This document shows, in pieces, positions 1,821 to 29,754 of a stretch of 38,178 nucleotides of DNA. The DNA is from a virus. Lineage: Duplodnaviria; Caudoviricetes. The stretch spans positions 1-38,178 of IMG/VR virus record IMGVR_UViG_3300037308_000544; one strand, written 5' to 3'. The number at the start of each line of letters is the position of its first letter. Positions within the stretch are counted from its first letter, which is position 1. The notes under the pieces are model-generated. The model worked only from the letters and a program-made list of their open reading frames with translations, was not told the DNA's origin and ran no database searches. Position numbers and translations under genes: made by a program.

Positions 1821-1845
1821 CTCTATATATATTAATATCTAAAGA
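1821..1845 (+). promoter_or_regulatory. candidate AT-rich promoter (CTCTATATATATTAATAT) for the RNA array operon
   Basis: Position only: AT-rich element between a stop codon and the first structured RNA unit; seen once in this window. Confidence 0.25.
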
Positions 1846-1874: not shown

Positions 1875-1983
1875 TAAGAGGACTTAGTGTAATTTCAGAT
1901 GTGTTGGATACACAAGACGACTGCTAATCGTCCTTTCGGGTTCAAATCCCGCAATGGAAAACATTACACTTTTCCACCTCTTA
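1875..1983 (+). ncRNA. array unit 1: Y-like stem carrying D-like, anticodon (GCT, Ser) and T arms
   Basis: Outer stem TAAGAGG 1875-1881/CCTCTTA 1977-1983; inner stem AGTGTAAT 1886-1893/ATTACACT 1963-1970; hairpins TGTG-TTGGATA-CACA, GACGA-CTGCTAA-TCGTC and CGGG-TTCAAAT-CCCG; no acceptor stem or CCA. Confidence 0.8.
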
Positions 1984-1993
1984 TTAAAATTTT

Positions 1994-2081
1994 GGCTGGA
2001 CTTTAAGTACTTTCAGACAACCCTTGAAAGGTTGGTTACTTCCTTTGATAGTAACTCCAAACAGTACTTGTATTACCAGCC
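1994..2081 (+). ncRNA. array unit 2: Y-like stem carrying an anticodon arm (TGA, Ser) and a second hairpin
   Basis: Outer stem GGCTGG 1994-1999/CCAGCC 2076-2081; inner stem AAGTACT 2005-2011/AGTACTT 2063-2069; hairpins CAACC-CTTGAAA-GGTTG and GTTACT-TCCTTTGAT-AGTAAC. Confidence 0.8.
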
Positions 2082-2090
2082 CAATATTAT

Positions 2091-2208
2091 TCTCCAGACT
2101 TGATGTCCGTTCAGATTGCTCAATGGTAGAGCATTAGCTTGATAAGCTAAGAGTGTTGGTTCAACTCCAACTCTGTACACCAAAAAACCGTACATCTTTC
2201 ACTGGAGA
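2091..2208 (+). ncRNA. array unit 3: Y-like stem enclosing a complete tRNA
   Basis: Outer stem TCTCCAG 2091-2097/CTGGAGA 2202-2208; inner stem GATGT 2102-2106/ACATC 2192-2196; tRNA lies between them. Confidence 0.8.
2109..2182 (+). tRNA. tRNA-Ile(GAT) or tRNA-like domain, with encoded CCA
   Basis: Acceptor GTTCAGA/TCTGTAC (one T-T mismatch at pair 3), D arm GCTC-AATGGTA-GAGC, anticodon arm TTAGC-TTGATAA-GCTAA (GAT at 2141-2143), T arm GTTGG-TTCAACT-CCAAC, discriminator A plus CCA at 2180-2182. Confidence 0.85.
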
Positions 2209-2216
2209 TAACTTTT

Positions 2217-2274
2217 AGTAGACTGAGTGTGATTTCAGAAATCTTCGGATTTTTCGGTCACACTCAAATCTACT
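2217..2274 (+). ncRNA. array unit 4: minimal unit capped by a cUUCGg hairpin
   Basis: Outer stem AGTAG 2217-2221/CTACT 2270-2274; inner stem GAGTGTGAT 2225-2233/GTCACACTC 2257-2265; apical AATC-TTCG-GATT. Confidence 0.78.
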
Positions 2275-2296
2275 TTTATTTTGTTTTGAAGTTTAT

Positions 2297-2363
2297 AAGA
2301 TAGACTTAATGTGATTTCAGCATACATTGGATATGTAAACGCAATCACATTTCTTTCTATCTT
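2297..2363 (+). ncRNA. array unit 5: Y-like stem with one hairpin (loop TTGGATA)
   Basis: Outer stem AAGATAG 2297-2303/CTATCTT 2357-2363; inner stem AATGTGATT 2308-2316/AATCACATT 2343-2351; hairpin TACA-TTGGATA-TGTA. Confidence 0.78.
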
Positions 2364-2380
2364 TTTAATTTTAAACTCAT

Positions 2381-2450
2381 AGATAGACTTGATGTAATTT
2401 CAGAATGCAACGCCATGAGAGTGCCCAAAGAATTACATCTACTCCTATCT
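2381..2450 (+). ncRNA. array unit 6: Y-like stem with weakly paired apical region
   Basis: Outer stem AGATAG 2381-2386/CTATCT 2445-2450; inner stem GATGTAATT 2391-2399/AATTACATC 2431-2439; possible extra basal helix AACTCAT 2374-2380/ATGAGTT 2459-2465. Confidence 0.78.
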
Positions 2451-2506
2451 TTCTAAAAATGAGTTATTTTCATCTTACGTCGGTCAACCCCTGAAAGGAG
2501 AAAAAA

Positions 2507-4063
2507 GTGGCAGCAAAACTAGAAGTTGACTCGGGTATATTACAATTTACGCCAAAAGGCGCTTATTACGAAGAAGCTAATGAACAATTCAAAAAAGTAT
2601 ATGAAATGTGGAAAAACTTATTCAAATTTGATAGAACTATGTTTTGTTTAACTATGCTCCTTCAAGGAACCGGATTTTCAAAGGGTATGATGACACATAT
2701 GTTGCTATCAAATCCTCAGAGCAAAAAAGGAACAGAATTGGTTCCTTTGGGATTGCCTTTTGACTATGAAAAGAAGGTTATCTTATTCAATCTAACAAAA
2801 GAAAGAACTCCAAGAGCATTAAAGAATCTCTTGATGTTAGCTGGTTCAGAAAAGCAAAAAAGAGTTAATAATAATAGAACCAGAAAGATCATTCTTGATT
2901 TCATATTTTCAAGAGATAACAAAGATTTAGATTATCTCGCAATAAACTATAAGCAAAAATTACGAGCTTTGGTCAAGCATGCTTTAGGAAAATATGATCT
3001 AAAGAAATTGCTTGATGGAGATAGAAAGATATTTGATAAATTTATTGGAAAGCAAAATGCAGATGCTTTTCCAGTTGTTTGTCATATATTCGATAAAGAT
3101 ATCTCAAAGTATAAAAACTTTGGAGATTCAAGATCTCTTAATTTAATGTTTCAAAAGATTAACCAATATGGTAAGCTGAAAGAAGCAGCGAAAAAGCAAG
3201 ATGTTGAAAAATTCAGAACTTTGATGAAAGGAATGCCCATGAGAACTGTCATGGGTTTCAGAAATCTATACAAAGTTCCTATTGATAAAGCGGAGTTATT
3301 CGAGAAAGCAGATATGTCTGAAAGAGAGTCAATTCAGATGGAAGCTGCTGTTAAAAAGAGCGGCGCAAAGAAAGAAGTAAATTACGAGAAACAAGAGATC
3401 TATGATCTTTGGAAATCTTTCTATTTCAAAATTATAACCAAGGACAATTCAAACCTTGAAAAAATCGCCAAGGCCATAGATAACCAATCCAAAGTCGTCC
3501 CAAAACTTAATATCGGTGAGTGTGTCGTCGTTTTCGATGCATCCGACTCTATGAGTGGCAGTCAAGAAAGACCACTACACCCGTTCCTAACGTCGTTGTG
3601 TCTCATCTCTGCAATTGACAATATCAAGGATATTATTTATGTTGGTGGTCAACAAATAAAAGTTCCTGAAATTGAAGGAATGAATTTGGTATTGCCCAAA
3701 AATCATTCTCCATTATGGAAGGGTTTGGTTGAAGCTGTTATTTCAGGAGCAAAAAATATTATAGTAATTTCGGATGGATATGAGAACGCCATAAAAGGTA
3801 TGTTTAATCATACCTATAAATATTTCAAAGATTCAGGTTATGATTTTAACCTGATTCATTTAAATCCTGTATTAGCAACAGATGCAAAAACTGGCACCAG
3901 TAGAAAGCTGGCTGAAGATGTTAAACCATTGCCAGTAGCAGATTATAAATATTTAGAAACAGAACTGATATTCAATAGAATGATTGAACAAAGAGAATTA
4001 GTAAAACAACTATTAGTAGGAAAGTATCAGGCCTTACTTGGAGAAAAGGAGGTAAAGGCATAA
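2507..4063 (+). CDS. helical N-terminal + C-terminal vWA protein; probable divergent Ro60/TROVE-like RNA-binding protein
   Basis: GTG start after AAAGGAG; 518 aa; basic helical first ~330 aa; vWA MIDAS motif VVVFDASDSMS and IIVISDGYEN. Size and architecture match Ro60/Rsr. The vWA call is firm; the TROVE call is inferred. Confidence 0.65.
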   Translation: MAAKLEVDSGILQFTPKGAYYEEANEQFKKVYEMWKNLFKFDRTMFCLTMLLQGTGFSKGMMTHMLLSNPQSKKGTELVPLGLPFDYEKKVILFNLTKERTPRALKNLLMLAGSEKQKRVNNNRTRKIILDFIFSRDNKDLDYLAINYKQKLRALVKHALGKYDLKKLLDGDRKIFDKFIGKQNADAFPVVCHIFDKDISKYKNFGDSRSLNLMFQKINQYGKLKEAAKKQDVEKFRTLMKGMPMRTVMGFRNLYKVPIDKAELFEKADMSERESIQMEAAVKKSGAKKEVNYEKQEIYDLWKSFYFKIITKDNSNLEKIAKAIDNQSKVVPKLNIGECVVVFDASDSMSGSQERPLHPFLTSLCLISAIDNIKDIIYVGGQQIKVPEIEGMNLVLPKNHSPLWKGLVEAVISGAKNIIVISDGYENAIKGMFNHTYKYFKDSGYDFNLIHLNPVLATDAKTGTSRKLAEDVKPLPVADYKYLETELIFNRMIEQRELVKQLLVGKYQALLGEKEVKA

Positions 4064-5040
4064 TGGCAAACATATTTGAAAAATTGAACTTCACCAACGT
4101 TGGAGTAGGTGCTGTTCAAGCTGTAGATGAAATGATTGTTATTCCAATTATCGGTCCAGATAGAGGAAACCTTGCTGACCCTCAACATTTGAAATTTGAG
4201 AGAACATCTGGATATGGAAATATGGTATTCAGAAATGAAGATGATGAAAAACCAGCTATCGTTCCAACCAATATGATGGTCAGAGGAAAATACGCTGCTC
4301 AAGATCATGCTATGAGTGAAGCAGGTATTGTAGGAAGGCGTGAAACTATCACGTTCGATACAGCTTGTTGTATAGAGCAAACGCAAGGTGGATATTTAAC
4401 AGATAAAGGTGAAAATGAACAAGATATACTACCAATTGAATTAAGAAAAGCATTATTAACAAAAGAAAAAAGAAAAGAAAAAAGTTATAGTAAATTATGG
4501 TCAGCTATTTCAAATTGGTTAACAGGACTTTCAATATCAGGGAAAGCTGGTTCAAATGCTCATCTAAATTATTTCTATAATAGCAAAGAAATTGCAGATT
4601 CATTAGAACAATTTGCATCAGAATTTGAACCTGTAGAAGGTCAAATTGGAGCAATTATTTTATTCAATGGAATTCCAGTTGGAGTTGAAATAATGCCAAG
4701 CAATGCTCATTGGCAGGCCTACTGGAAATACTTGATTAGGGGTTGCTATGGTGCAGAACTATTACGACTAAAAATGTTAAATAAAATACCAAATTCAACA
4801 TTAGTATTACCGGAGATTCCAAAAGAATCAGATCCAGAAAAAGTAAAAGAAATTCTATCAGACTTTTGCGATCATGTTCAAAAAGATGTTCTACCATTAT
4901 TAGAAAATATTGACGTCGTATCACAAACAGCAATGACAAATAAAAGCGGATTAACTTGCAGATTAGTTAAAACAAAAGGTGGAGGCGGAGATTTAATTTC
5001 TGAAGGAAATACTCCAGTATATCTATCAATTGTAGTATGA
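4063..5040 (+). CDS. ARPP-like (DUF6569-like) protein
   Basis: Coupled to the previous gene (TAATG overlap). Motifs MIVIPI, AAQDHAM, ACCIEQTQGG and FEPVEGQIGAIILFNG..VGVEI resemble ARPP-family proteins as I recall them. Confidence 0.55.
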   Translation: MANIFEKLNFTNVGVGAVQAVDEMIVIPIIGPDRGNLADPQHLKFERTSGYGNMVFRNEDDEKPAIVPTNMMVRGKYAAQDHAMSEAGIVGRRETITFDTACCIEQTQGGYLTDKGENEQDILPIELRKALLTKEKRKEKSYSKLWSAISNWLTGLSISGKAGSNAHLNYFYNSKEIADSLEQFASEFEPVEGQIGAIILFNGIPVGVEIMPSNAHWQAYWKYLIRGCYGAELLRLKMLNKIPNSTLVLPEIPKESDPEKVKEILSDFCDHVQKDVLPLLENIDVVSQTAMTNKSGLTCRLVKTKGGGGDLISEGNTPVYLSIVV

Positions 5041-5210: not shown

Positions 5211-5293
5211 GTCCTGTCACATAGTGGCTAAGACAAAGCTAACTACTCTAAAAAAGTAGCTCTAGTAGTCAAAAGCCATTATGTTGGCAGGAC
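5211..5293. ncRNA. long irregular intergenic hairpin (candidate structured RNA)
   Basis: GTCCTGTCA 5211-5219/TGGCAGGAC 5285-5293 and CATAGTGGCT 5220-5229/AGCCATTATG 5274-5283, continuing GAC/GTC, GCTA/TAGT and CTACT/AGTAG. G-T wobbles favour the + strand. Confidence 0.6.
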
Positions 5294-5340
5294 TATCTTT
5301 ATTCCACTATTCCCTTTTTGTATCTAAAATGGAGGTAAAA

Positions 5341-5907
5341 GTGAAGATTATATCAACAGAAAAGTTTATAGAACAATTAGGATGTGAAATTTATCCAATT
5401 ACTATTGTAAAGTTTTTATTAAATAAGAAAAGAATTTTAGGTTATTTTTCAAAAGCATCTGATAAAAGTTTTGATCCAAAACAAAAATATATTATTGATC
5501 CTACTACATGCCCAATTTGTCAACAAAAAACAGATATGTTATGTAGGCAGCATACTTCAATTGATAGAGTATTAAAAGCAAATATTGTTGCTCATGATGT
5601 TGATTCAAATGTATTCTTTTTTAGAAATGAAATTTTTAAGATGGTAGGAAATAGATTAGTTATAGTATATTGCCCACATCCAAAATTAATTAGTGGAGAT
5701 ATTACAGATTCAAAAGTAAGAAAGATAAATCCAATAACTATAGAAGATCCAAAGCTGAAACAATTACCCGAGTATGAAGAGAAAACATTCTTATCAAGCG
5801 AATTGATGGATCAATCTTTAAAATGTTGGTTCAATAATGAATTTTCAATAGTAACTATCCCAGAAGATAGAAATTTACAGAATTGGTGCTTAATGCCCAA
5901 TAAATAA
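5341..5907 (+). CDS. hypothetical protein with putative Zn-binding motif
   Basis: Probable GTG start at 5341 behind GGAGG (the track start at 5281 lies inside the hairpin); motif CPICQQKTDMLCRQH. Confidence 0.7.
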   Translation: MKIISTEKFIEQLGCEIYPITIVKFLLNKKRILGYFSKASDKSFDPKQKYIIDPTTCPICQQKTDMLCRQHTSIDRVLKANIVAHDVDSNVFFFRNEIFKMVGNRLVIVYCPHPKLISGDITDSKVRKINPITIEDPKLKQLPEYEEKTFLSSELMDQSLKCWFNNEFSIVTIPEDRNLQNWCLMPNK

Positions 5908-5923
5908 AGGAGGATAATAATTT

Positions 5924-6862
5924 ATGCCAGGTTTTGAAGATTACAAAGATTTAAATAAAACAGGATATACAAGTGTAGAAACAGTAGCACCAGAAGATGA
6001 GTTTTTTCACTCAGTATATATTTCTGGTCAAAGCAGAAAAAATCATATTAATATTGAAGAAGAAATAGGAAAAATGCAGATTCGAGGAGTTGAATATAAT
6101 CTTAGTGAAGTAAATATGGTTATAGTTCATACTAAGGAATTATTATCAAAAATTATTTCCAAGGCTGGAAAAGATAGTGTTGAGTGTTTTTCTTTTAAAG
6201 ATGGAGCACCTCCATGGTTTGGAACTTCTAAACTCCCAGATGGAAATAGAAGACAATGTCCCCAAACATCTGCTGAAAGAGCGGTCGTTGATTTTTGTAG
6301 TCCATGCCGATCTCAAATTCTTGTAGCTGGTATTTATTGTAGACCGGATGGAACTCCTGTAGTTACTGAAGATAAGAAACCGGTCTTTGTGTTCGTAAGA
6401 GCAAAAGGAATGAAGTATTCAAATATTGCAAATTATTTATCTGAACTTTATAAAGAAGATTTACCACCAGTATTTGAACCTGTTACAGAAAAGAGTAAAG
6501 AATTTGAAAAGAAAGTAGTAAATCAAAAACGATTTGTTACTAAAATTACAAAAGGTTCAGCATCATCAAAACATGGAATGAAAGATGTTTTTGTATTAAC
6601 TAAAGGACAGCAATTACCAAAAGAAGCTGTTTTAAAAATATTGACATTATCTAAAAATACTCTTGACAAATTCAATGAAAAATTTGATTGGTCAAGAAGA
6701 GGAACATCTTCATACGATGTTACTGAGGCTCAAGCAGAAGGAATCATGTCGATGGAATCTACTGAGGGATCTACAACAATTCCAGTTGATGAAGCATCTT
6801 TACAAAAAGAGAAAGAAAAACAATCTGCAAAACTGTTTAGTTTTGATGACATAGAATTCTAG
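5924..6862 (+). CDS. putative single-stranded DNA-binding protein
   Basis: Strong AAGGAGG; 312 aa; beta-rich core with Cys cluster (C...CPQ...FCSPC); low-complexity linker and acidic/aromatic tail FSFDDIEF typical of phage SSBs. Confidence 0.55.
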   Translation: MPGFEDYKDLNKTGYTSVETVAPEDEFFHSVYISGQSRKNHINIEEEIGKMQIRGVEYNLSEVNMVIVHTKELLSKIISKAGKDSVECFSFKDGAPPWFGTSKLPDGNRRQCPQTSAERAVVDFCSPCRSQILVAGIYCRPDGTPVVTEDKKPVFVFVRAKGMKYSNIANYLSELYKEDLPPVFEPVTEKSKEFEKKVVNQKRFVTKITKGSASSKHGMKDVFVLTKGQQLPKEAVLKILTLSKNTLDKFNEKFDWSRRGTSSYDVTEAQAEGIMSMESTEGSTTIPVDEASLQKEKEKQSAKLFSFDDIEF

Positions 6863-6879
6863 TTACCTAGGGGGAGAAA

Positions 6880-8103
6880 ATGGCTGAAGTAAAGGAAAGA
6901 GAGTTACAGTATCATGAAAGGTTAAACATTGGAGTTTTATCAATCGCTAGAATTAAGCGACAATTAAAAAATGATATTATAGAAACCCTTATTGCTTGGG
7001 AAAAAGGAAGACCAGTTCAAAAGCAATGCTGGAGAATTATTGGTCCAGCTGGAGTTGGAAAAACTGAAATATGTTATCAGATTGCAGCAGAACTTACAAA
7101 AGAAACTGGAAAGAAATTTGATATTATAATGGTAAAAGCTCCAGTCCTTTCAAGAGATGATTTCATTATTCCATTTCCTGTTACAGCTGGAGACGAACCC
7201 AAATTCAAAATGTTATATTCAGATTTTGTTCCAACTGTATCAAGTAGTTATGGCATCTTCGTTATTGATGAATTTTCTCGTGGTGACCATACACTTCAAC
7301 AATTATTATGGCAAGTTCAAAATGAATATGCAATCCACAGGTTTAAATTTCCAGATGGATGGTTTGTGATTTCAATTGATAATCCAGACGAGTCACAATA
7401 TTCAATGGAAATTCTTGAGGATGCGGCTGGTATCAGAAGGCAACTTCAAATTGCTGTCGAAGTTAGTGCTATTGATTTTTTGGAATATGCAATTGAGAAT
7501 AAGTTTCATCCATATGTCATTGAGTTTATTCAAACCCATCCAGAAAGGGTTTATGATTTCTCATCTCAAAAATCTGGAATGGTTTATGCAAACCCTGCAA
7601 GTTGGGAGAAACTCTCTGACCATTTATGGAAAATGTATATGTCACATGATAGCATTAATTTCGATGATCTTGAACCTAGAGCTCAAGGTCTACTGAACGT
7701 TCATATGACCAGACTCTTTATTGAATTTGCAAAAGAGAAAAAGGATATCAATCCAAAAGACATCTTCTATAAATTTGGAAGTGTAAAAGCTGATATTGTT
7801 AAACTAAAGAAGGAAAATAATAACTCCAAGCTTGGGGAAATTATGATTTCTTTTTGTACATTCCTTACTACTAGCATGCCCAAATATGAAAAAGAGCATC
7901 TTAATAATATTCTTGATTTCTTACTATTAATGCCCATTGATACTGGGGCTCTATTTATTTCACACGTAGATCAATATGAAAGAAATTCAAAGCAATTTCA
8001 ATATATGACCGGAATCCATCAATATTTTCTAAAGTCAGCACCAAAATATAAAACAGAATTTTATGATCCAATTGTTCAATGTGGTGAAGGAAAAATAAAG
8101 TAA
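6880..8103 (+). CDS. MoxR-like AAA+ ATPase
   Basis: Walker A GPAGVGKT, Walker B IFVIDEFSR, sensor IDNP, DAAGIRR and NPASWEKLS; adjacent to a vWA-peptidase gene. Confidence 0.85.
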   Translation: MAEVKERELQYHERLNIGVLSIARIKRQLKNDIIETLIAWEKGRPVQKQCWRIIGPAGVGKTEICYQIAAELTKETGKKFDIIMVKAPVLSRDDFIIPFPVTAGDEPKFKMLYSDFVPTVSSSYGIFVIDEFSRGDHTLQQLLWQVQNEYAIHRFKFPDGWFVISIDNPDESQYSMEILEDAAGIRRQLQIAVEVSAIDFLEYAIENKFHPYVIEFIQTHPERVYDFSSQKSGMVYANPASWEKLSDHLWKMYMSHDSINFDDLEPRAQGLLNVHMTRLFIEFAKEKKDINPKDIFYKFGSVKADIVKLKKENNNSKLGEIMISFCTFLTTSMPKYEKEHLNNILDFLLLMPIDTGALFISHVDQYERNSKQFQYMTGIHQYFLKSAPKYKTEFYDPIVQCGEGKIK

Positions 8104-8139
8104 ATTAAGTGAGGATGGGTGGGTGGGATTTAATTTACT
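8099..8139 (+). promoter_or_regulatory. AT stem with G-rich loop immediately before an RBS
   Basis: AGTAAATTAA 8099-8108/TTAATTTACT 8130-8139 enclosing GTGAGGATGGGTGGGTGGGAT; AAGGAG follows at 8141. Confidence 0.4.
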
Positions 8140-8151
8140 AAAGGAGAACAA

Positions 8152-9435
8152 ATGGATACAATAGAAAGAATGAATAAACTTATTGCTCGATTTGTTTTAC
8201 AATATAATTTCTGGGGGTATTTATTTTCATCAATAAAAAGAGTTCCGATTCTCGAACCCGAAAAAGTAGGATTCACAAGCATTATGGGGGTTGGAGCAGA
8301 AACAGATGGAACGATCAGCTTATATTTTGTTCCAAATCTAGTTGAGAAAACAGATGATAAAAATTTACTTACTATTATTGAACATGAAGGAATGCACGTA
8401 TTAAATAAACATATTCCAAGACTTTTAAGAATATTAGCAAATGAAACTAAAGAACATATGAAAGAACCAAAAATACAGATTTGGAATATTGCTTCTGATT
8501 GTTCAGCAAATCAACAAGCAAATCTTAAAGATGTAGTAATTGATGGAAAGGCATGTCTTCTTCAATTACCTAAAATGTATAATCTTCCAGATGGAAAAGT
8601 TAGTGAGTTTTATTATTTAGAATTATTAAAAAAACAAAAACAAAACCTTGATAAATATGAGCAGTTTATAAAGCAAGTTAAAGGGTTAGTTGATAACCAT
8701 TCAAAATGGTCAGGAAATTTAAAAGGTGTCTCTGACCTAAGCAGCTTGGCAAGAAAAGTTGATAACTATACAACCAGTGTTATAAGAGAAGCAGCAAAAA
8801 CTTTTCAAAAAGAAAGAGGAAGTTTGCCAGCATATATATCAGAATTGATTGCAGAAGCCTTAAAGCCACCAAAAGCTCCTTATTATCAGATTATTAGGAG
8901 ATTGGTAAGAGCAACAAGGTTCAGCAAGTTTAAAAGATCACATACAAAAATTAATAGAAAAAGAGCATATCTTTTTGCTCTTGATGATGATGGTCTTCCA
9001 AAATTATCTCCATTTCCAGGAAGGACAAGAGACTTTACTTTCAAGATCGTTATATTGATTGATACATCTGGAAGTATGGGAAAAGATGAAATTCTAGAAG
9101 CTCTTTCTGGAATAAAAAATATTATTGAGAATGATCGTCATTGTTATACTATTGTATTGGAAGTAGATACAGTGGTTAATAAAGAATATCGTCCAAAGAG
9201 AATAAAAGACATAGATTTTAAAGTCAAAGGTAGAGGCGGAACAACTCTTGGTTTAGGAATTGATCGAGCTCGTGAATTAAATCCAGATGTTTGTTTAGCT
9301 TTTACAGATGGTTACACAGAGAATATTAATGCATATCCAAGAAAAAAGTTTCCCAAGAAAATGATTTGGGTTGTAACCCCAAAAGGTTCTGTAGAAAATT
9401 TGAATAGGACGGGGTATATAGTTAGATTAGATTAG
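8152..9435 (+). CDS. metallopeptidase-like (HExxH) + vWA domain protein (DUF2201-like)
   Basis: HEGMH, WNIASDCSAN, vWA ILIDTSGSM, GRGGT and FTDGY. Confidence 0.85.
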   Translation: MDTIERMNKLIARFVLQYNFWGYLFSSIKRVPILEPEKVGFTSIMGVGAETDGTISLYFVPNLVEKTDDKNLLTIIEHEGMHVLNKHIPRLLRILANETKEHMKEPKIQIWNIASDCSANQQANLKDVVIDGKACLLQLPKMYNLPDGKVSEFYYLELLKKQKQNLDKYEQFIKQVKGLVDNHSKWSGNLKGVSDLSSLARKVDNYTTSVIREAAKTFQKERGSLPAYISELIAEALKPPKAPYYQIIRRLVRATRFSKFKRSHTKINRKRAYLFALDDDGLPKLSPFPGRTRDFTFKIVILIDTSGSMGKDEILEALSGIKNIIENDRHCYTIVLEVDTVVNKEYRPKRIKDIDFKVKGRGGTTLGLGIDRARELNPDVCLAFTDGYTENINAYPRKKFPKKMIWVVTPKGSVENLNRTGYIVRLD

Positions 9436-11258: not shown

Positions 11259-12278
11259 ATGAAAGAGAAAATAGTGACAATAGCCTATAAACTAAAAGAT
11301 AAAACAACTTATAAAATAACAAATTATGAAACATATGACAAAGAAAAAAAGCTAGAAGATAATTTTGAGATAAACCTTACCCAATTTTTAGGAATGCGTT
11401 ATCTTGCAAGACAAGTAGTAATGTTTGGGTTTAAATATAAAATTGATATTCTTGCCTATGATTTTGAAGGAAGACTGGTTGTAATAGAATTAAAAAAGAC
11501 AAAAGATCAACTTCTTTTTGTGCAGGTTTCTAGATATGAAGAATTTATAAAAAACTGGGGAGGAAAGTATCAACTAGGTCTATTAGCAATTCAAGAACTT
11601 AAAAAACGATATAATATAGATATTAGCTATGATGAAATTAAATCAATGAAAATACGATATATATGTGTTGCAGGCGAGTTCGATGAGTATGATAAGTTAT
11701 TAATGAAAAGCGACCGTTTTTCTGATTTTGAATTTGTAGAATATTCTTTACTAGATAACAAAAAATGTGTAGTTTTGAAATATTTTATGTGTAACAATAG
11801 TCATAAACTTACATGGAATACTGCTGCTAAAGAATATAAAGAAGAAAACGAAGATACTGAAGAAAATGAAGATACTGAAGAACCTAAAATAAATATAATA
11901 TTAAATGAACTTCAAAATAAAGATTGGCTTTATTCTAGATATTTTAAAGATTTAATTGATTGGTCAATGTTAAATGTAAAATTTGAACTATTTGCGGACA
12001 CTGGAGATATAAATTGCGCTCATTATTATGATACTATTTCTAAAAGAATGCTTTTTACGTTACTAAAACATCCAGAAAGATTAATAGTAAATATAAATCT
12101 TCCAAAAGAGTATAAAGACAAGATGCAATACTCAGATTTTATAGTAGATTCAAGTAAGCCAAAATATGGAAAAGGTAGTACTGATGTATATGTTACAGAT
12201 GATAATTCTCTAGAAAAAGCAAAAGAATTAATAAAAGTAAAAGCTGAAGAAATTTTAAAAAAGAATGGGATTAATTGA
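11259..12278 (+). CDS. PD-(D/E)xK endonuclease, NucS/DUF91-like
   Basis: EKKLED..., KIDILAYDFEGRLVVIELKK and QVSRY motifs, followed by an acidic linker and a C-terminal domain. Confidence 0.7.
   Translation: MKEKIVTIAYKLKDKTTYKITNYETYDKEKKLEDNFEINLTQFLGMRYLARQVVMFGFKYKIDILAYDFEGRLVVIELKKTKDQLLFVQVSRYEEFIKNWGGKYQLGLLAIQELKKRYNIDISYDEIKSMKIRYICVAGEFDEYDKLLMKSDRFSDFEFVEYSLLDNKKCVVLKYFMCNNSHKLTWNTAAKEYKEENEDTEENEDTEEPKINIILNELQNKDWLYSRYFKDLIDWSMLNVKFELFADTGDINCAHYYDTISKRMLFTLLKHPERLIVNINLPKEYKDKMQYSDFIVDSSKPKYGKGSTDVYVTDDNSLEKAKELIKVKAEEILKKNGIN
11841..11882 (+). repeat. 18-bp in-frame tandem repeat (EENEDT x2.3)
   Basis: GAAGAAAACGAAGATACT GAAGAAAATGAAGATACT GAAGAA. Confidence 0.8.
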
Positions 12279-12598
12279 AAGTATTAAGGAGTAATTATGT
12301 GACTAACATTTGGCAAGAAGTAAAAGACTTCATTAATAACAAATCAGCTGGAACTATTATAGAAAGAAAAGAAATAAAACAATTATTGCATGGAAAAATA
12401 CCAGAAAAGAAACCATATGGAGGATATACATTTGATAAGTATTTAAGATATCTTACTCTTCATGGATTTTTAGAACATTGTGATAAGGGTAAATATAAAT
12501 TACTACAACGTATTCCTACAAACGTAAGTAGTGAACGAGCAAAGCAAGTAGCATATAAAAAACGAACTTATGAAAAAGTGGGAATTTTAGATATTTAA
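12275..12598 (+). CDS. hypothetical protein, winged-helix-like paralogue 1
   Basis: WQEVKDFIN...IPEK..GGYTFDKYLRYLT..GFLEH..KGKYK; shared with the next two ORFs. Start codon uncertain. Confidence 0.7.
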   Translation: MKVLRSNYVTNIWQEVKDFINNKSAGTIIERKEIKQLLHGKIPEKKPYGGYTFDKYLRYLTLHGFLEHCDKGKYKLLQRIPTNVSSERAKQVAYKKRTYEKVGILDI

Positions 12599-12607
12599 GG
12601 ATCTACA

Positions 12608-13219
12608 ATGGCATTAATGACTAAGTCACAAGAAAAATACATAAAAGATATTGAAAAGAATTTAAATGTTAAATATTCAGGTTCACCTTCACGAAAAGAT
12701 GCTTCAATATTTATAAAGAAATATGTAGATAAGAATAGAAAAATAAGATTAGGAAATAACGATATAATACTTCCAACAGGTAAACAATTAAGATTTATTA
12801 GAGCTATTGAAAAAAATCTAGGGATTAAATTTAGAGGAAAAACTTTTGAAGAAGCAAGTTTATTTATATATCAGAAAATAAAGAAGAATTTGAATTGTAT
12901 CGAAATAACTGATGGGAAGGGAAGAAGAATGACATACTGGCAGGAGTTAAAACGATTTATTAACCATAGACAAATTGGAGAAATTATTACAAGACAACAA
13001 TTAATGAATTTATTTCGTAACTACTTACCAGAAAAAAGTTCAATTGGTGGTTACACATTTGATAAATATAGAAGATACTTAACAGTAATAGAAATATTAG
13101 AGCATATAGGAAGAGGAAGATATAGAATCAATCAACATGTTGCGCCTTGGATGAATAGCAAGAATGTTCAACATATGGCATCTAGTAGACATCTTATAGA
13201 TAAAGTTAGGAGTTTCTAA
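12608..13219 (+). CDS. hypothetical protein: duplicated N-terminal module + winged-helix-like paralogue 2
   Basis: Two copies of T..Q...I..IEKNL..K..G....AS.FI, then MTYWQELKRFIN...GGYTFDKYRRYLT; possible internal ATG at 12929. Confidence 0.7.
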   Translation: MALMTKSQEKYIKDIEKNLNVKYSGSPSRKDASIFIKKYVDKNRKIRLGNNDIILPTGKQLRFIRAIEKNLGIKFRGKTFEEASLFIYQKIKKNLNCIEITDGKGRRMTYWQELKRFINHRQIGEIITRQQLMNLFRNYLPEKSSIGGYTFDKYRRYLTVIEILEHIGRGRYRINQHVAPWMNSKNVQHMASSRHLIDKVRSF

Positions 13220-13513
13220 ATGGGTCGTGGAAATTTTTGGCAAGAAATGATTAGATTTATAAACTATCAACCCATTGATTCTATTATAACGAGACCAAGA
13301 CTAGCAAGATTATATTATGGTTATATTCCAGAAAAAACTAGTGGCATTAAAACATTTGATGAATATAGAAGACTTTTTTGTAATCTCGGATATTTAGAAC
13401 GACTTGGAAGAGGACAATATAAAGTTGTAAAACGAATTCCAGATTGGTTAAGAAGAAAAAACGCAGCAGGTATGGATAGAAGAAACTTAAGATATGTGGT
13501 ACAAGATAGTTAG
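13220..13513 (+). CDS. hypothetical protein, winged-helix-like paralogue 3
   Basis: WQEMIRFIN...IPEK...TFDEYRR...LGYLERLGRGQYK..RIP. Confidence 0.7.
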   Translation: MGRGNFWQEMIRFINYQPIDSIITRPRLARLYYGYIPEKTSGIKTFDEYRRLFCNLGYLERLGRGQYKVVKRIPDWLRRKNAAGMDRRNLRYVVQDS

Positions 13514-13817
13514 AGAAAAAGATGGAAAAATATTCACATTATTTCATGGAACACAAGGAAGTAGATTATTAGAACCAGAAACCTGGTATGAAGCAGACCA
13601 AAAAGTTGTTAATGATGGAACAAGTAAAACTTCTTATATATCTGGCTTCCATGTATTGCCAAGTTATGATATAGCAAAGATATACTTAGAAAAACATTTT
13701 AAAAATAAAGAAAATAAAAAAATTGTTAGATGTTTTGCTGGAGAAGTAACTCAAAAAGCTCATAGTAAAGATCCAGTATTTTTAGCTAGATTTATTTACA
13801 TTCTAAAAGGAGAATAA
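13494..13817 (+). CDS. hypothetical phage protein (107 aa)
   Basis: Overlapping/abutting ORF within the gene train; no function recognised. Confidence 0.7.
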   Translation: MWYKIVREKDGKIFTLFHGTQGSRLLEPETWYEADQKVVNDGTSKTSYISGFHVLPSYDIAKIYLEKHFKNKENKKIVRCFAGEVTQKAHSKDPVFLARFIYILKGE

Positions 13818-13819
13818 AA

Positions 13820-14128
13820 ATGAAAGTTAGAAGTCCATATTCAGATCTTTGTTCAAGTGTTATTTGGATGCTAAAAGAATTTAAAAGAATCAGACCAATT
13901 GAGATTGCAGAAATGTTAGAAGCTAAACCAAAATCAGTAAGAGATGAGTTAAGAAGATTATCAGAACAATGTATTTTGAAAGAGTTTATAACAAAAGAAA
14001 AAACTGGAGTAGCAACATATTATATAATGAATGAACAAGCAAAACAAGCTCCTGTACCTTTCCTAAAAGATCTTGCAAAGAAAACATGGAAATTTAACCG
14101 TAAGTATACTCCAGAAACAAGGACTTAA
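13820..14128 (+). CDS. putative winged helix-turn-helix protein
   Basis: AAAGGAG; IRPIEIAEMLEAKPKSVRDELRRL fits an HTH pattern. Confidence 0.6.
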   Translation: MKVRSPYSDLCSSVIWMLKEFKRIRPIEIAEMLEAKPKSVRDELRRLSEQCILKEFITKEKTGVATYYIMNEQAKQAPVPFLKDLAKKTWKFNRKYTPETRT

Positions 14129-14129
14129 T

Positions 14130-14408
14130 ATGAGGGAAGCACACGTTTTGATACAATTTGATATGACAAAATTAGATAAAGATAAATTAGATAAACTATT
14201 CCAAATTGAACTGCTATTTCATGAAATGGGAATCACGTTTGATACTGGTGCTGGTTTTGGTGGTAGAGATTGGGAATGGGATTGGAGTTTGAAAGGACCA
14301 GTAAAAGTATACTTCAAAGAATTTAAAGATGAATTTGAAAAGAGGAAAAATAATGAGTCACAAGACAATAACAAGGAATTGCCCATCGTGCAAGAAACTG
14401 GTTGTTAA
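14130..14408 (+). CDS. hypothetical protein
   Basis: Probable ATG at 14130, just after the previous stop; motif GITFDTGAGFGGRDWEWDWSL. Confidence 0.65.
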   Translation: MREAHVLIQFDMTKLDKDKLDKLFQIELLFHEMGITFDTGAGFGGRDWEWDWSLKGPVKVYFKEFKDEFEKRKNNESQDNNKELPIVQETGC

Positions 14409-24710: not shown

Positions 24711-27251
24711 ATGCTACAAGAAGAAATACGAATTAATGATAAATTTGTATCCGTGGTAAAAATAGATCCTGATTATTCAGAAAAACCAGATATACCAATA
24801 GCTAAAATATCTTCTCAATCAACTAATATTTTTCTCAAAAAAATAAACGAGAAATTTCTTTTAACACAAATAGGAATGACTCCAGCAAATTGTAGATATA
24901 TAGAAAGTTTAAGTGAAAAAACAAAAGTTATAATAATAGAAGAACCTCCATCTATTAGAACGCTATTTTTCTTTACAAAAAGTATTCCAGAGGTAATAGC
25001 TTCTTTAACACCAGAAAAAATAGCAGAATATCAGATTGATAAAGAAGATTTTGAAAAAGAACTTATTAAATTCAATTTAGCTTTACCATATATAATTTTT
25101 ATAATGGTATTTAATGGTTCAAGACTTGATTTATTACAAGCTGCAGTAAGACCAAAACCTATAATTAGTTTAACTGATAATCTTTTTGTTCCTCCATTTC
25201 TAAATATAAATGAGAGTTTTCAAGTATGTCTAGGAGAGGGAGTACAAGACGGAACAAATATCGTAGTATCCACAGAAAAAGTTTTAAAGAAATTTTGGGC
25301 AACTCCATTCAATAGAGATTATGCTAATAATTTTGTAAAATATAAAACAGTTCCAATAATAGGTAATTTATTTGATTGGCAATATAATAGTCAAGAAAAT
25401 CCAATGTTTATTTATAAAGTTGATTGGATTCCAATGGATCAATCATGCCAATCCTTTCTTACAACTATAAAATCAACATATTCACAAAATAAAGTGAAAC
25501 CTTTAACATATATAGAACTTCATAAAATATTTGATATGAAACAAAAATATGCAACAAGAAAAAAGGTTCAGAATAAGCCAGTATTATATGAAGATGTTTG
25601 TAATGGAATTAACTTACTAAAAACAAAAGACGAGCCAGCAACTTCCATATATATAGGCGATCCTTTTCATTTTAAAAATAAAAACTTTTTTATAGAAACA
25701 TTTTTATCTTTTGATCCAGAAGGACCAGCTGAATATCTACGATTTCTATCTACAGAAAATAAGCAAATTACAATGAAGTTAACTAAAAAGACCAGAGCTT
25801 TTCTTCTCAAACAAAGAAAGAAGCTATTATATGATGAAGAGGCAACATTACCAAATGGAATAGTTGTAAAAGCTGGAGATATTTTAATTCTTGAGAATAT
25901 GCTTAGCAGTAAAAAATCATTATTTAAAAAGATTATTTATATTAGAAAAGGGTCAGAAGGATTTGTAGAATTAAGAGCTGGAGATCAATATCTAATAGTT
26001 GATAATATTCCAAAAACTGCTAAAAAACTTGATTTTGACGATATAAAAATAGATGGAGTAAAACTAGAAAAAGATCAAGAATATTTTATCGTTAATAGGC
26101 AAGGAACCAATAATGCCGTATTAGAATATTTGGTAAAAGCCAAATTCAAAGAACTCTCAATTGCCCAATCTGATAGATTAGTAGCTAGATTTTTATATGG
26201 TGCTGGAGAAATCAATCTTAATCTGGGAGATACTGGATGTGTATTTAAAGGATTAACTTTTGAAAAATTACCAAAAGTTATTTATTTAGGAAGACTTCTT
26301 ATGACTAGTTTACAAGGAGAAATGTATAGAAAAGATAATTCAATATATTTTACTTCAGGTATTGGGCATGTACCCGATACATCTACGGGGTTTGATTTAA
26401 TATGCAAAGAATTATTACAAGATGGATCTTTTATAGCAAAATCATCTAATTTAGATATTATATTTTCTGTTGGAGATGAAGTTGTAATTTCAAATTGGGA
26501 TAATCCAATTGATATGTTAAAGATAAAAACAATAATTGGAATAAGCAAAAATACAGAAAAAAGAACAATTGATTTTCATTTAGTAGATAAAGATAATGTT
26601 AACTCAAAGGTTTCTTATGTAGAAAAATATATAATTTATGTAGGAACTGTTAGAAAAATAATACGAGAGTATAATGGAATAAAAAGAGGCTCTAAAATAG
26701 TAGCAAAAGAAGGATTGAAGAACTTTCCAAAAGGATCAGTTAATATTATAATTGGTTTCTTAAATGATACAGGAACTTCAGAACCATTAGTGTTTTGTTC
26801 AAATGCTTTAACCTTATGGTTTAGTGATCTTGAAAAGAATTTTGATATTATTGAAGAAAATTCTAAAGATTGGAATAAGTTAGTTCATGAGCCAATTAAT
26901 TTGTCAAATATTGAAATGCAACCTGGAGATATAGTTGAATGTACCTCTGGTTACAAATTATTTGGTGGTTTTGTATTATTTAAAAATTCATCATACGATG
27001 CAATAATAGCTGCGGCAGTCTTAAAATCTAATATGAATTTTTCAGATTATTATAACTTGGATAGAATGTTTTTAGCTGAAATGAAATTTAATGCAATTTT
27101 AAATCCAAGAATAAGTTTAAAAGAAGATACATATTCTTGTTTACCAAATCTTCATGGAGGATATTATAGAAACTCAGTAATGAATTATAGTACTATTCCA
27201 TATTTTCAACCCGGGAAAGGAAGGGAATTTGATGTTTCCAATAGCGATTAA
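24711..27251 (+). CDS. large protein with N-terminal prokaryotic E2 (family D-like) domain
   Basis: LALPYIIF...LFVPPFLNINESFQVCLG...FWATPFN matches the Prok-E2_D/PRTRC-B pattern; about 600 aa C-terminal extension; lies next to JAB, E1 and Ubl genes. Confidence 0.7.
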   Translation: MLQEEIRINDKFVSVVKIDPDYSEKPDIPIAKISSQSTNIFLKKINEKFLLTQIGMTPANCRYIESLSEKTKVIIIEEPPSIRTLFFFTKSIPEVIASLTPEKIAEYQIDKEDFEKELIKFNLALPYIIFIMVFNGSRLDLLQAAVRPKPIISLTDNLFVPPFLNINESFQVCLGEGVQDGTNIVVSTEKVLKKFWATPFNRDYANNFVKYKTVPIIGNLFDWQYNSQENPMFIYKVDWIPMDQSCQSFLTTIKSTYSQNKVKPLTYIELHKIFDMKQKYATRKKVQNKPVLYEDVCNGINLLKTKDEPATSIYIGDPFHFKNKNFFIETFLSFDPEGPAEYLRFLSTENKQITMKLTKKTRAFLLKQRKKLLYDEEATLPNGIVVKAGDILILENMLSSKKSLFKKIIYIRKGSEGFVELRAGDQYLIVDNIPKTAKKLDFDDIKIDGVKLEKDQEYFIVNRQGTNNAVLEYLVKAKFKELSIAQSDRLVARFLYGAGEINLNLGDTGCVFKGLTFEKLPKVIYLGRLLMTSLQGEMYRKDNSIYFTSGIGHVPDTSTGFDLICKELLQDGSFIAKSSNLDIIFSVGDEVVISNWDNPIDMLKIKTIIGISKNTEKRTIDFHLVDKDNVNSKVSYVEKYIIYVGTVRKIIREYNGIKRGSKIVAKEGLKNFPKGSVNIIIGFLNDTGTSEPLVFCSNALTLWFSDLEKNFDIIEENSKDWNKLVHEPINLSNIEMQPGDIVECTSGYKLFGGFVLFKNSSYDAIIAAAVLKSNMNFSDYYNLDRMFLAEMKFNAILNPRISLKEDTYSCLPNLHGGYYRNSVMNYSTIPYFQPGKGREFDVSNSD

Positions 27252-28560
27252 TGACGGAAGTTTAGAGTTACCTAAAGACGATATAGTATATATTATTGCA
27301 AAAGAAGGTATATTTCTGAAAAAGAAATTGGATATTCTAGAAAGTATTGTTCCAGTACAAAATATTTCTTTTTTGCAAAGTATAAATACAATGGCAAAAT
27401 TACATATACCAAAAATAAAAGCTGATACTATTACAAGAGTAATCTTGTTTTTTAAAGAAATTTATAAATTATATAGTTCAGAAGCTATTGTTTTAATATT
27501 CTATAATAAAGAAAAAAAGAAATTTAAAATGATTCCCCCTTTTCAAAAAGTGACTGGTGGTTCTTTAGAATATAACAGAACCATTAATGAAGAAGGGTAT
27601 GATATGATTGGAACCATTCATAGTCATGGTATGATGTCTGCATTTCATTCTGGAACAGATCAGCATGACGAAAAGAGTTTTGATGGGTTACATATTACTA
27701 TTGGAGATCTTGATGAAGAATTTGTTAGTATATCAACGTCAATAGTTTCAAATGGAACCAGATTTATTGTAGAAACTCTTGATTATATGGAATTAAAGAA
27801 ACAAGTAGATATTGATGAAGTAGAAGAAAGAAGTTATGGAAAAATATTTACTTGGGATCCAGAAACCAAGAAGATGGTAGAAAAAGAGCATACATATAAA
27901 GTGAAAAAATATGATAAAAGATTTTCTCCATTACCATCAAAAGAAAATATATCATTTAATAAAGAATGGTTGAAACGTGTTGAAAAACAAACATATACAT
28001 ATAATACTGCAGCATATAGACACCATTGGGCTAATTATTATCCGGGTTATTATGGTATGCTTGATGATGGTGAAGCATGGGAAGATTATTTCAAAAGAAT
28101 ACGAGGGGATAGAACTCCAGCTGGTTTTAAATTTAAGAAACCCGAAGATTCCAAAAATAATATTACAATAGGTCCAAAAGATAAACAACAAGAAAAGAAA
28201 CCAATAGAAACAATAGTTAAAGATGAAGATGATTTTAATCCATGCGAAAGCTGTACATTTAGAGACAGTAAAATAGATTGGGTAATAGAGCAAATAACCC
28301 AAGGAACCGAAGATAATTATGATGAAGAAAAGTTAACTACCAACTTTATTGTAGATGATTTACAAGTTGTAGAAAATGAAAAAGGAGAAGCTTATTTAGA
28401 AGAAGATCAAAAAGCTATTCAAGAAGAAGTAATGCGTCAGATAGAAGAAGAACCAAAAGTTATTGAAAGGATTCCAGAACCTGGCAAGAAGGCAATTCCA
28501 CTAACATCAAGATTTGGTGGATTACTTCGATTTTTCATTCATAGAAAAGAGGGAACATAA
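27232..28560 (+). CDS. JAB/JAMM (Mov34/MPN) isopeptidase with long acidic C-terminal region
   Basis: SEAIV...GTIHSHGMMSAFHSGTDQHDE (E...HxH...S..D); ATG at 27232 (track uses TTG 27229). Confidence 0.88.
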   Translation: MFPIAINDGSLELPKDDIVYIIAKEGIFLKKKLDILESIVPVQNISFLQSINTMAKLHIPKIKADTITRVILFFKEIYKLYSSEAIVLIFYNKEKKKFKMIPPFQKVTGGSLEYNRTINEEGYDMIGTIHSHGMMSAFHSGTDQHDEKSFDGLHITIGDLDEEFVSISTSIVSNGTRFIVETLDYMELKKQVDIDEVEERSYGKIFTWDPETKKMVEKEHTYKVKKYDKRFSPLPSKENISFNKEWLKRVEKQTYTYNTAAYRHHWANYYPGYYGMLDDGEAWEDYFKRIRGDRTPAGFKFKKPEDSKNNITIGPKDKQQEKKPIETIVKDEDDFNPCESCTFRDSKIDWVIEQITQGTEDNYDEEKLTTNFIVDDLQVVENEKGEAYLEEDQKAIQEEVMRQIEEEPKVIERIPEPGKKAIPLTSRFGGLLRFFIHRKEGT

Positions 28561-29240
28561 TGCGAATTGTTATAGTCGGGCTTGGGGGTATTGGTTCAAT
28601 TCTATGTGAAAAATTATCAAGGTATATAAAACATATTACTAATGAGGAATTTAATTTAATTTTTATAGATGGTGATGATTATGAAAGCAAAAATTTAGTA
28701 AGGCAAGAATTTGCCACATATGGAAATAAAGCAGAAGTAAAAGCAGCAGAAATATTTAATAAATTTGAAATTACTGTAAAACCATATCCATATTTTATAA
28801 ATGGAGATAATATTGACGCAATTATTAAAGATAATGATATAGTTATGCTATGTGTTGATAATCATAAAACTAGAAGACTGGTATCTAATTATTGTAGTAT
28901 GCTAGATAATATTACTCTTATTTCAGGAGGAAACGATTATATTGATGGAAATGTTCAAATTTATGTAAGACGAAAGGGAGAAGATATTACAGCAGATTTA
29001 TGTGCATACCATCCAGAAATAAAAGAAGCAAAAGATAAATCTCCAGAAGAAATGTCATGCGAAGAATTGGAGAAATCAGAACCGCAACTTTATTTTACAA
29101 ATTTAACAGTTGCTACTATAATGTGTTGGACGTTTTATAATATCGTCACAAAAAAATTGATTGGACCAGGCGAAGTTTATTTTGATATAAATTCTATGTC
29201 AGTAAACTCGCAACTAAGAGAACCGAGAAAAGGAGAATAA
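28560..29240 (+). CDS. ThiF/E1-like ubiquitin-like activating enzyme
   Basis: VGLGGIGS, IDGDDYESKNLVRQ, NKAE, CVDNHKTR; candidate catalytic Cys in MSCEE. Confidence 0.9.
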   Translation: MRIVIVGLGGIGSILCEKLSRYIKHITNEEFNLIFIDGDDYESKNLVRQEFATYGNKAEVKAAEIFNKFEITVKPYPYFINGDNIDAIIKDNDIVMLCVDNHKTRRLVSNYCSMLDNITLISGGNDYIDGNVQIYVRRKGEDITADLCAYHPEIKEAKDKSPEEMSCEELEKSEPQLYFTNLTVATIMCWTFYNIVTKKLIGPGEVYFDINSMSVNSQLREPRKGE

Positions 29241-29242
29241 AA

Positions 29243-29704
29243 ATGGCTTACAAAAGAGAAACGTTAGAACGTATGACTGTTGATGAATTGAAAGATATTT
29301 GTTGGAATAAAGATATTAGAGGAGTCTCCAAGAAACCAAAAGCTGTCATTATTGACAAAATTATGGAGAAACTCGGGGCCAAAGAAAAAGCAGCTTTTGC
29401 TCCAGCTAAACCAGCTGCTCCATTGAAAGGATTGTCTGGTGAATTTGAAAGCGAACTAACCAATCCAAATGGAAGAGCTGGCGATAAAACAACTACAACC
29501 ATTCAGGTTTCTTGCGGAGCTTCTTCTGGTAGATTCCCAGTTGTTGGGAGAACCGTAAGGGAAGTATCAGAATTTCTAAAAGAAATTTTGAATGTAGATA
29601 CGCTTTCTTCAGGTCTGGTCAATGGCCGAGAAGTATCATCTGATTATGTATTAAAAGCAAGAGACACTCTAGAGTTTATTAAACCCTCTGGAAGAAAAGG
29701 ATAA
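29243..29704 (+). CDS. ubiquitin-like (beta-grasp) protein with N-terminal Rho-N/HeH-like domain
   Basis: N-terminal LERMTVDELKDIC...IRGVSKKPKAVII; Ala/Pro linker; C-terminal TIQVSCG...GRTVREV...LVNGREVSSDYVLKARDTLEFIKPSGRKG ending in Gly. Confidence 0.8.
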   Translation: MAYKRETLERMTVDELKDICWNKDIRGVSKKPKAVIIDKIMEKLGAKEKAAFAPAKPAAPLKGLSGEFESELTNPNGRAGDKTTTTIQVSCGASSGRFPVVGRTVREVSEFLKEILNVDTLSSGLVNGREVSSDYVLKARDTLEFIKPSGRKG

Positions 29705-29720
29705 TAACTAACTCAGAAAA

Positions 29721-29754
29721 GTTGGAGGGTTCAAAAAAAAATGAACCCTCCAAC
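29721..29754. terminator. perfect 13-bp hairpin after the Ubl gene (terminator-like or mRNA-stabilising)
   Basis: GTTGGAGGGTTCA-A8-TGAACCCTCCAAC; a short T tract follows only on the - strand. Confidence 0.55.

Follow-up and report, generated by a model that had tools for sequence, protein, structure and literature searches.

Organisation of the locus

The window analysed here is a stretch of 38,178 nucleotides (nt), positions 1 to 38,178 of the IMG/VR virus record IMGVR_UViG_3300037308_000544 (Duplodnaviria; Caudoviricetes). The subject of this report is an array of six putative small RNAs in this window, followed by two genes, one for a 518-amino-acid (aa) protein that resembles Ro60 in its predicted fold and one for a protein with an ARPP-1 domain. 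The array lies in a gap of 700 nt (1807-2506) without open reading frames (ORFs) of 60 aa or more, between an 83-aa gene, which ends at 1806, and the 518-aa gene, which starts at 2507. Each unit of the array consists of a constant paired part, called the handle here, and a variable apical part, called the cargo. The preliminary description of this DNA had read the locus as an array of Y-RNA-like, tRNA-mimicking RNAs serving a Ro60-like protein and an ARPP-like partner. The features are listed below.

1823..1835, + strand: AT-rich element CTATATATAT-W-AA, about 40 nt 5' of unit 1; single copy in the 38-kb window
1875..1983, + strand: unit 1, in which the handle encloses D-like, anticodon-like (GCT) and T arms, without an acceptor stem of its own
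1994..2081, + strand: unit 2, in which the handle encloses two hairpins; a 7-nt anticodon-like loop caps the first
2091..2208, + strand: unit 3, handle closing a complete tRNA (2109-2182) with anticodon GAT and an ACCA end
2217..2274, + strand: unit 4, short handle with a 2x3 internal loop (AC opposite AAT) and a UUCG-capped hairpin
2298..2362, + strand: unit 5, short handle; its hairpin loop repeats the D-like loop of unit 1
2381..2450, + strand: unit 6, with a short handle and a cargo that folds only weakly; it lies about 55 nt 5' of the start codon
2507..4063, + strand: Ro-like protein of helical repeats and a vWA domain, 518 aa (AlphaFold model, Foldseek and conservation)
4063..5040, + strand: ARPP-1 protein, 325 aa; its start overlaps the upstream stop

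From the AT-rich element through the array to the Ro-like and ARPP genes, all of these have the same orientation and together make up a unit that is conserved across many phages.

Six units of one architecture

The motif TTCAG occurs six times in the gap (1894, 2012, 2110, 2234, 2316 and 2399), each time 13 nt after a GAC. There are thus six copies of GAC-N10-TTCAG in 700 nt. Both strands of the remaining window have none, and no more than one copy turned up in any of 2000 dinucleotide-shuffled versions of the gap (24 of the 2000 had one). All six units fold in the way that had been described, with an outer stem, an AC(U)n internal loop, an inner stem, TCAG and a variable cargo; the folding z scores of units 1 to 6 were -3.3, -3.1, -2.8, -6.3, -5.1 and -1.9 (200 shuffles per unit). 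The internal loop had been proposed to face a strand of 4-6 nt, mostly pyrimidines, which does not apply to unit 4, and the 2x3 loop of this unit is the second commonest loop class among relatives in a tally that took in two spurious rows (L062 and L064). A model, R1, built from 51 short units including units 4-6 of the window, matched unit 1 at 48 bits and unit 2 at 29 bits, and unit 3 weakly (12 bits, E 0.74).

Mimicry of tRNA had been suggested for the whole array. Clear tRNA arms are limited to units 1 and 3. The tRNA in unit 3 was called by ARAGORN and by the Rfam tRNA model (67 bits) as a cloverleaf with acceptor stem and CCA and one U-U mismatch in the acceptor stem; the TTCAG of this unit doubles as part of the 5' strand of the acceptor. 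Unit 2 does begin with GGCTGG and close with CCAGCC, but the likeness to the ends of animal Y RNAs that had been seen in it is a matter of chance, GGCTGG being found in only this one of 338 handles.

The same six units are present in a relative at 96% protein identity (locus L043). Its unit 3 tRNA has the anticodon ATG instead of GAT, with unchanged anticodon and acceptor stems, a C-G pair in the T stem of unit 1 has become T-A by changes on both sides, and the differences in unit 2 are confined to the loop of the second hairpin and the internal loop.

Of 51 distinct regions upstream in close relatives, 48 contain the core of the AT-rich element, TATATATA-W-AA, which has a frequency of 0.01 per 1100 nt in the rest of these loci; we infer that the element is a candidate phage promoter. 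Neither a sigma-70 promoter nor a terminator was found above chance in the gap. Three metatranscriptome contigs were about 95% alike to the window over parts of the two genes (3809-4065, 4078-4398 and 4584-4811) and none covered the array; as contigs cannot show transcription, these matches are no evidence either way.

Conservation of the handle

A scan of viral contigs with the single protein sequence gave nothing, whereas a scan based on an alignment succeeded, and 93 loci were fetched with an alignment of 75 protein sequences. The expectation that similar arrays would stand beside homologous genes was borne out. The handle motif was present within 1 kilobase (kb) upstream in all 45 non-redundant close loci with at least 800 nt of upstream sequence (the window included; gene starts estimated), and at least twice in 43 of them, against a background of 0.13 per kb. 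In all 45, handles lie within 4 kb on the same strand as the Ro-like gene (Ro-like as judged by fold). Locus L007 and its duplicate L183 were left out by the upstream-length cut-off; both score zero, with handles that read TTCAT.

The complementarity of the stems, which had been noted within the array, extends to these relatives. A pairing score of at least 15 was reached by the 5' and 3' halves of 61% of 172 motif-selected units, compared with 2.8% of 428 swaps within the same locus, 6.5% of 852 random swaps and 2.7% of 516 shuffles. An alignment of 51 short units was made by sequence only, with its structure based on RNAalifold; it holds 48 of 70 units, preselected for pairing, and three from the window. 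In this alignment 93% of the cells pair, against 69% when shuffled and at most 46% in slid registers, and 13 of the 15 pairs have two-sided changes. Covariation of the aligned sequences shows that each unit pairs into an outer and an inner stem, the latter ending at UUCAG, with an AC(U)n internal loop between the two. A strand-neutral test of mismatches (134 of 169 units) counted 11 G-U and two A-C, an excess that favours RNA made from the + strand.

TTCAG had been called invariant, which is true within the window but not of the family: it is found in 167 of 239 structured handles (duplicate loci included), and the variants are TTCTG, TACAG, TTCCG and TTCAT. Membership of the YrlA or Y RNA families by docking motif was not upheld, as GNCGAA is present in none of the 338 handle 5' strands and CGAA occurs nowhere in the array of the window. 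Six canonical TROVE loci, a small control, had no handle upstream.

The cargo

The proposal of a constant handle with interchangeable, tRNA-derived cargo is supported across the relatives. Among 121 cargos of 60-135 nt, ARAGORN called 46 as tRNAs unaltered and 21 more only after circular permutation, with none in 121 shuffles. Whole tRNAs make up 22 of the 66 long cargos of the close family. The arms come in the orders D-anticodon-T, D-anticodon-T-acceptor, anticodon-T-acceptor-D and T-acceptor-D-anticodon, which implies that the cloverleaf can be joined to the handle at more than one of its junctions. Across relatives the cargo takes the form of whole tRNAs, circularly permuted tRNAs of the YrlA type, twin anticodon-like hairpins or tandem pseudoknots. 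The T-acceptor-D permutation is in no unit of the window and is found in some relatives, one of which (a unit of L133) matched Rfam YrlA over its T-acceptor-D module (positions 30-81) at 26 bits, against a cut-off of 69, leaving the docking part unmatched. Tandem H-type pseudoknots with A-rich loops were seen in four of 82 long cargos (L003:3539, L047:3052, L067:1369 and L089:2929) and in no shuffles. Anticodon-like 7-nt loops numbered 39 in close loci, against 3.1 when shuffled, and 33 in bacteria, against 0.9.

The anticodon does not stay with the tRNA body. The 36 distinct whole tRNAs have 15 anticodons, of which TTA is present in ten tRNAs and A34 in 12, and the anticodon was common to only eight of 31 pairs of tRNAs with bodies at least 80% alike; the change from GAT to ATG in L043 is a case of this. 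As judged from sequence, the cargo keeps the shape of a tRNA and not its decoding identity.

The Ro-like protein and its ARPP partner

The gene at 2507-4063 encodes a 518-aa helical and vWA protein, as had been described. In its predicted model (predicted local distance difference test, pLDDT, 87) helical repeats are followed by the vWA domain, and Foldseek gave 11 matches in the PDB at E<=0.001, of which the top ten rows are all Ro60. The best, Ro60 2i91, was matched over the full length (E 5.7e-7, template-modelling (TM) score 0.56, 559 columns, 11% identity). Among the viral models of BFVD, Ro-like proteins stand at the top and Ro-like or vWA proteins are among the matches; the ESM Atlas gave TROVE clusters at 0.95, which is a lead. 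MIDAS is the metal-site motif of vWA domains, and a MIDAS-type set of residues is present here (D344, S346, S348 and D423), of which D344, S348 and D423 are invariant and S346 is nearly so in the 75 sequences. Conserved basic stretches lie at 121-158 and 244-256. The protein has at least 252 relatives. Searches of PDB sequences with the 518-aa protein and with two profiles found nothing significant.

A possible trace of RNA recognition comes from the proteins of L007 and L081, which are 76% identical. Four of the five handles at these loci read TTCAT, and both proteins depart from the other 50 in the alignment at N147 and R252, where conservation among those 50 is 100% and 98%. By comparison of the sequences, these two residues may read the RNA motif.

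The ARPP assignment of the next gene was confirmed by Pfam (PF20208, E 1.7e-23, 83.8 bits against a cut-off of 27). Q80, H82 and C103 are invariant in an alignment of 99 sequences. The model of this protein (pLDDT 95) had no PDB match at E<=0.001, and an Atlas structure of an ARPP cluster was matched at TM 0.86. Among loci with enough sequence, an ARPP gene lies 3' of the Ro-like gene in all 40 of the close family, where it is directly downstream, in 36 of the 39 from bacteria and in all 46 of the distant viral ones. One contig carries a natural fusion of the Ro-like domain and ARPP (P0265, 884 aa).

Distribution in phages, bacteria and plasmids

A distant branch of the Ro-like protein was reached by profile search and aligned with the close family at 100% in HHalign. 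It is found in Planctomycetota, Myxococcota, Bacteroidota and others (62 loci), and also in other phages. The locus had been taken for a phage system, and it is carried by many phages, but it is not confined to them, since members are present on bacterial chromosomes and plasmids. Plasmid members were found in Nostoc (L236:6600-6990) and Alkaliphilus (L237:4150-5010), with the handle variant TTCCG. On the Nostoc plasmid a xisH-xisI pair lies between the Ro-like gene and a weak ARPP match. The cultured carriers on record are Stieleria, Minicystis, Nostoc and Alkaliphilus. None of the cultured phages encodes the Ro-like protein, whereas one uncultured record of 462 kb does.

Handles of the form G(G/A)ACT...T(T/A)CAG, alike in fold, were found upstream in 28 of the 43 non-redundant loci from bacteria and in 42 of the 48 from distant viruses. 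At least five tRNA genes lie nearby in 21 of 51 bacterial loci. In Minicystis rosea (L246:4563-17814) an array of 54 tRNAs holds both a canonical TROVE gene (6733-8379) and a Ro-like/ARPP pair (11804-14361).

Genomic setting of the window

The window looks like part of a large phage genome. Among its features are split subunits of RNA polymerase, subunits of gyrase, an AAA ATPase accompanied by a vWA-metallopeptidase gene, and a cassette of the prokaryotic ubiquitin-like kind, and loci related to the window were found on IMG/VR contigs of up to 248 kb. The neighbouring features are as follows.

1-935, 31428-34100 and 34295-37306: RNA polymerase genes, two beta-like and one beta-prime-like
5281-5907 and 5924-6862: two genes without assigned family, 3' of the ARPP gene, with counterparts in about 70 close loci
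24711-30629: prokaryotic ubiquitin-like cassette, with an E2-D domain protein, a JAB peptidase and two ThiF/E1 genes

The two beta-like genes and the beta-prime-like gene suggest two multisubunit polymerases, as in jumbo phages. The two genes after the ARPP gene are probably core phage synteny. In the ubiquitin-like cassette, which is about 20 kb from the array, a 153-aa gene between the two ThiF/E1 genes had no Pfam match.

Interpretation

We take the locus for a genuine variant of the Ro/Y RNA particle, widespread and so far unannotated, and it is neither YrlA nor TROVE by their defining motifs. Our best reading of the comparisons and predicted models is that it represents a branch of this particle not described before, which would have its own docking stem and a dedicated ARPP partner. 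That the array and the two genes together specify a Ro-like RNA-protein particle is, in our judgement, probable.

In the known Rsr loci, a single precursor gives rise to the Y RNAs, with RNase P cleaving some of them (PMC4201824), and by analogy the array could be transcribed as one precursor that is cut into single small RNAs. The handle would dock on the outside of the putative Ro-like ring, by way of its conserved basic helices, in place of the GNCGAA of YrlA. The cargo would present the shape of a tRNA (elbow, anticodon loop and sometimes a CCA end) without decoding, and such a cargo would serve as bait or tether for tRNA-recognising proteins of the host, first of all anticodon nucleases. 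A platform for decoy or repair, directed at tRNA nucleases, is suggested by the variety of the cargo, the drifting anticodons and the placement of members in tRNA arrays, which are induced by stress according to the available text of PMC8421152. ARPP would, more speculatively, process damaged RNA ends held by the particle. The explanation as a whole, in which handle RNAs dock on the Ro-like protein, cargos made of tRNA parts act as decoys or repair clients and ARPP is the enzyme, is somewhat favoured. Defence against tRNA damage, by decoy or repair, is quite conceivable as the main role, though we would put it at a little under an even chance. A broader version is rather unlikely: that this is a separate, widespread Ro-like class in which one docking stem, read by its sequence, would be the socket into which a whole library of translation mimics fits (cloverleaves of tRNA opened at various junctions, twin anticodon loops and tandem pseudoknots), with ARPP as a cysteine enzyme that works on RNA ends or on the baited nucleases, serving phages as counter-defence and bacteria as a stress system against tRNA-cutting toxins.

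The main rival is a tether to polynucleotide phosphorylase (PNPase) as in phage phiLo. In such a RYPER-type arrangement the RNAs would bind the Ro-like protein, the tRNA fold would only stabilise them or tie the particle to a host exoribonuclease such as PNPase, so that RNA decay is steered or blunted, and ARPP would be an accessory. A tether of PNPase by Ro and Y RNA has been shown in Deinococcus and Salmonella (PMC4201824), and the available text on the Thermus phage phiLo reports that its Ro60 and two Y-like RNAs dampen host PNPase in vitro (PMC12135203); the short hairpin units here also parallel YrlB and Yrn2. A tether would leave unexplained the near-obligate ARPP partner, the kept anticodon-like loops and the several types of cargo per array, and we consider it unlikely. 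The array could also stay in the mRNA as a cis-regulatory leader, with the Ro-like protein or host tRNA-binding factors on its handles controlling the two genes. This agrees with an array that is always upstream on the same strand and after one conserved promoter-like element, as well as with a last unit so near the start codon and the lack of a terminator-like site in the gap. A leader appears improbable, however. Whole tRNAs that end in CCA, and permuted ones, speak for RNAs that are processed, and in the predicted fold every unit leaves the ribosome-binding site free. Some distant phages have their handles as far as 1-2 kb upstream, and a KilA-N gene family is present within 1 kb upstream in 13 loci.

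A store of real tRNAs is very doubtful. In that case the paired handle would be the leader and trailer of an embedded tRNA, which is set free to read codons or to suppress stops, and both the full tRNA with ACCA in unit 3, together with the whole tRNAs of the close family, and the place of bacterial members in long tRNA arrays speak for it. Against it, anticodons differ between near-identical bodies, ten of the 36 whole tRNAs would read UAA, the stop codon of the Ro-like gene itself, 12 have A34, and in the window only one of the six units holds a whole tRNA. Repeated handles with variable inserts could finally suggest an element that acts as DNA, through single-strand hairpins, recombination sites or a CRISPR-like array. 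Sites of the attC type contain one-strand hairpins with extra-helical bases. The inserts here are tRNA arms and not foreign DNA, the handles vary in sequence yet keep their pairing, and no recombinase or cas gene stands beside the handles among the recurring neighbours. On these grounds the CRISPR-like and attC-like readings were rejected; the predicted fold of the partner is also of an RNA-binding type, and a DNA-level element is extremely improbable.

Several observations weigh against the particle with tRNA-like decoys that we prefer. The Ro60-like nature of the protein, as it had been proposed, stands at the level of predicted fold but not of sequence: Pfam has no match for the 518-aa protein, TROVE (PF05731) was also absent from all 58 relatives, and HHalign with five canonical TROVE proteins aligned the vWA part alone, at 2.8% for the close and 42.7% for the distant family. 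The protein is therefore Ro60-like by fold and fails the TROVE profile. Its global TM score of 0.56 and root-mean-square deviation of 7 Å to Ro60 would fit a closed ring. RtcB was found in only one of three related phage records, far from the locus. In the distant branch, 15 of the 43 bacterial loci have no handle pattern upstream, and R1 gave only eight matches at E<=1 in 100 distant loci, so that the distant handles rest on a loose pattern and folding; as this pattern occurs 41-194 times per bacterial genome, single bacterial matches are weaker evidence. The 51-unit alignment overstates pairing, because its units were preselected for it. The change to TTCAT together with changes at N147 and R252 is a single event in a clade with eight changed conserved positions, which makes it a lead and not proof. 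Short hairpins without a tRNA feature account for 116 of 205 close-family cargos and for units 4-6 of the window, and the drift of the anticodon fits neutral decay as well as selection for decoys.

Neither Pfam TROVE nor Rfam YrlA detects the family, yet its members range from large uncultured phages to cultured bacteria. For ARPP, an enzyme by prediction whose fold has not been solved, it supplies a new and nearly obligate context, and the socket-and-library reading, if true, would give ARPP its first RNA-linked role. The particle would likely protect protein synthesis against attacks that cut tRNA. The reason for tRNA mimicry by bacterial Y RNAs is an open question (PMC4201824), and it becomes directly testable with one handle that carries many tRNA-derived cargos, as the cargo can be swapped while docking would stay fixed.

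Comparison with known systems

Ro60 with tRNA-like Y RNAs is already known, phages included. A search of mostly open-access literature found no description of this branch of Ro-like proteins, of the handle or of a link between Ro and ARPP. ARPP has been predicted to be a cysteine enzyme acting on ribose, in contexts that include ARG/ADP-ribose systems, HIRAN, WYL and a deacetylase (Iyer et al. 2022, PMC9503650, main text). The domain is the same as here (PF20208, with conserved Cys and Gln), but the word TROVE is absent from that main text and no RNA partner is described in it, whereas the ARPP gene of the window adjoins a Ro-like gene.

The Ro60 of phage phiLo (PDB 9kop and 9l5y) is a phage-encoded Ro60 fold of low identity with Y-like RNAs upstream, and was matched by the present model in Foldseek at E 3.6e-5 and 8.6e-5. 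Its RNAs, Yrl1 and Yrl2, are two in number and carry CGAA; in the available text of PMC12135203 they are not termed tRNA-like and no ARPP is described. Long tRNA arrays are induced by translational stress in Anabaena, as far as the available text of PMC8421152 goes, and the papers on such arrays, in the parts available, report a TROVE gene in 20 of 29 archaeal tRNA clusters (PMC8421152 and PMC6333295). The bacterial members found here often lie inside such arrays, and HNH genes recur nearby in both; neither a Ro-like/ARPP pair nor handle RNAs are described in those parts, and the window has no tRNA array. The Class I RNAs of dictyostelids, as described in the available text of PMC7919456, are similar in that a terminal stem is kept in structure and not in sequence, with a short motif by the 5' strand and a variable remainder. 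They differ in being eukaryotic, bound by a protein with an RNA recognition motif (RRM) and built on a single 6-bp stem without tRNA cargo.

The closest comparison is with Rsr and its YrlA/YrlB or Yrn1/Yrn2 RNAs (Chen et al. 2014, PMC4201824). Both systems have a helical and vWA protein of the ring type, here a putative one by predicted model, with several small RNAs just upstream on the same strand, a terminal stem with a tRNA-like module, and long as well as short-hairpin members; the T-acceptor-D permutation of YrlA also recurs in some relatives of the array. Six diversified copies had been thought to exceed known Ro loci, a claim that is qualified by Deinococcus, where five small RNAs lie upstream of Rsr, two of them with the docking stem (PMC4201824). 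The differences lie in the docking motif, which is GNCGAAN0-1G there and would be GAC(U)n...UUCAG on a two-helix handle here, and in the absence of a Pfam TROVE or Rfam YrlA call here. The present loci also have 1-7 copies of the handle with several types of cargo, including unpermuted whole tRNAs, and a fixed ARPP partner takes the place of rtcB/rtcA.

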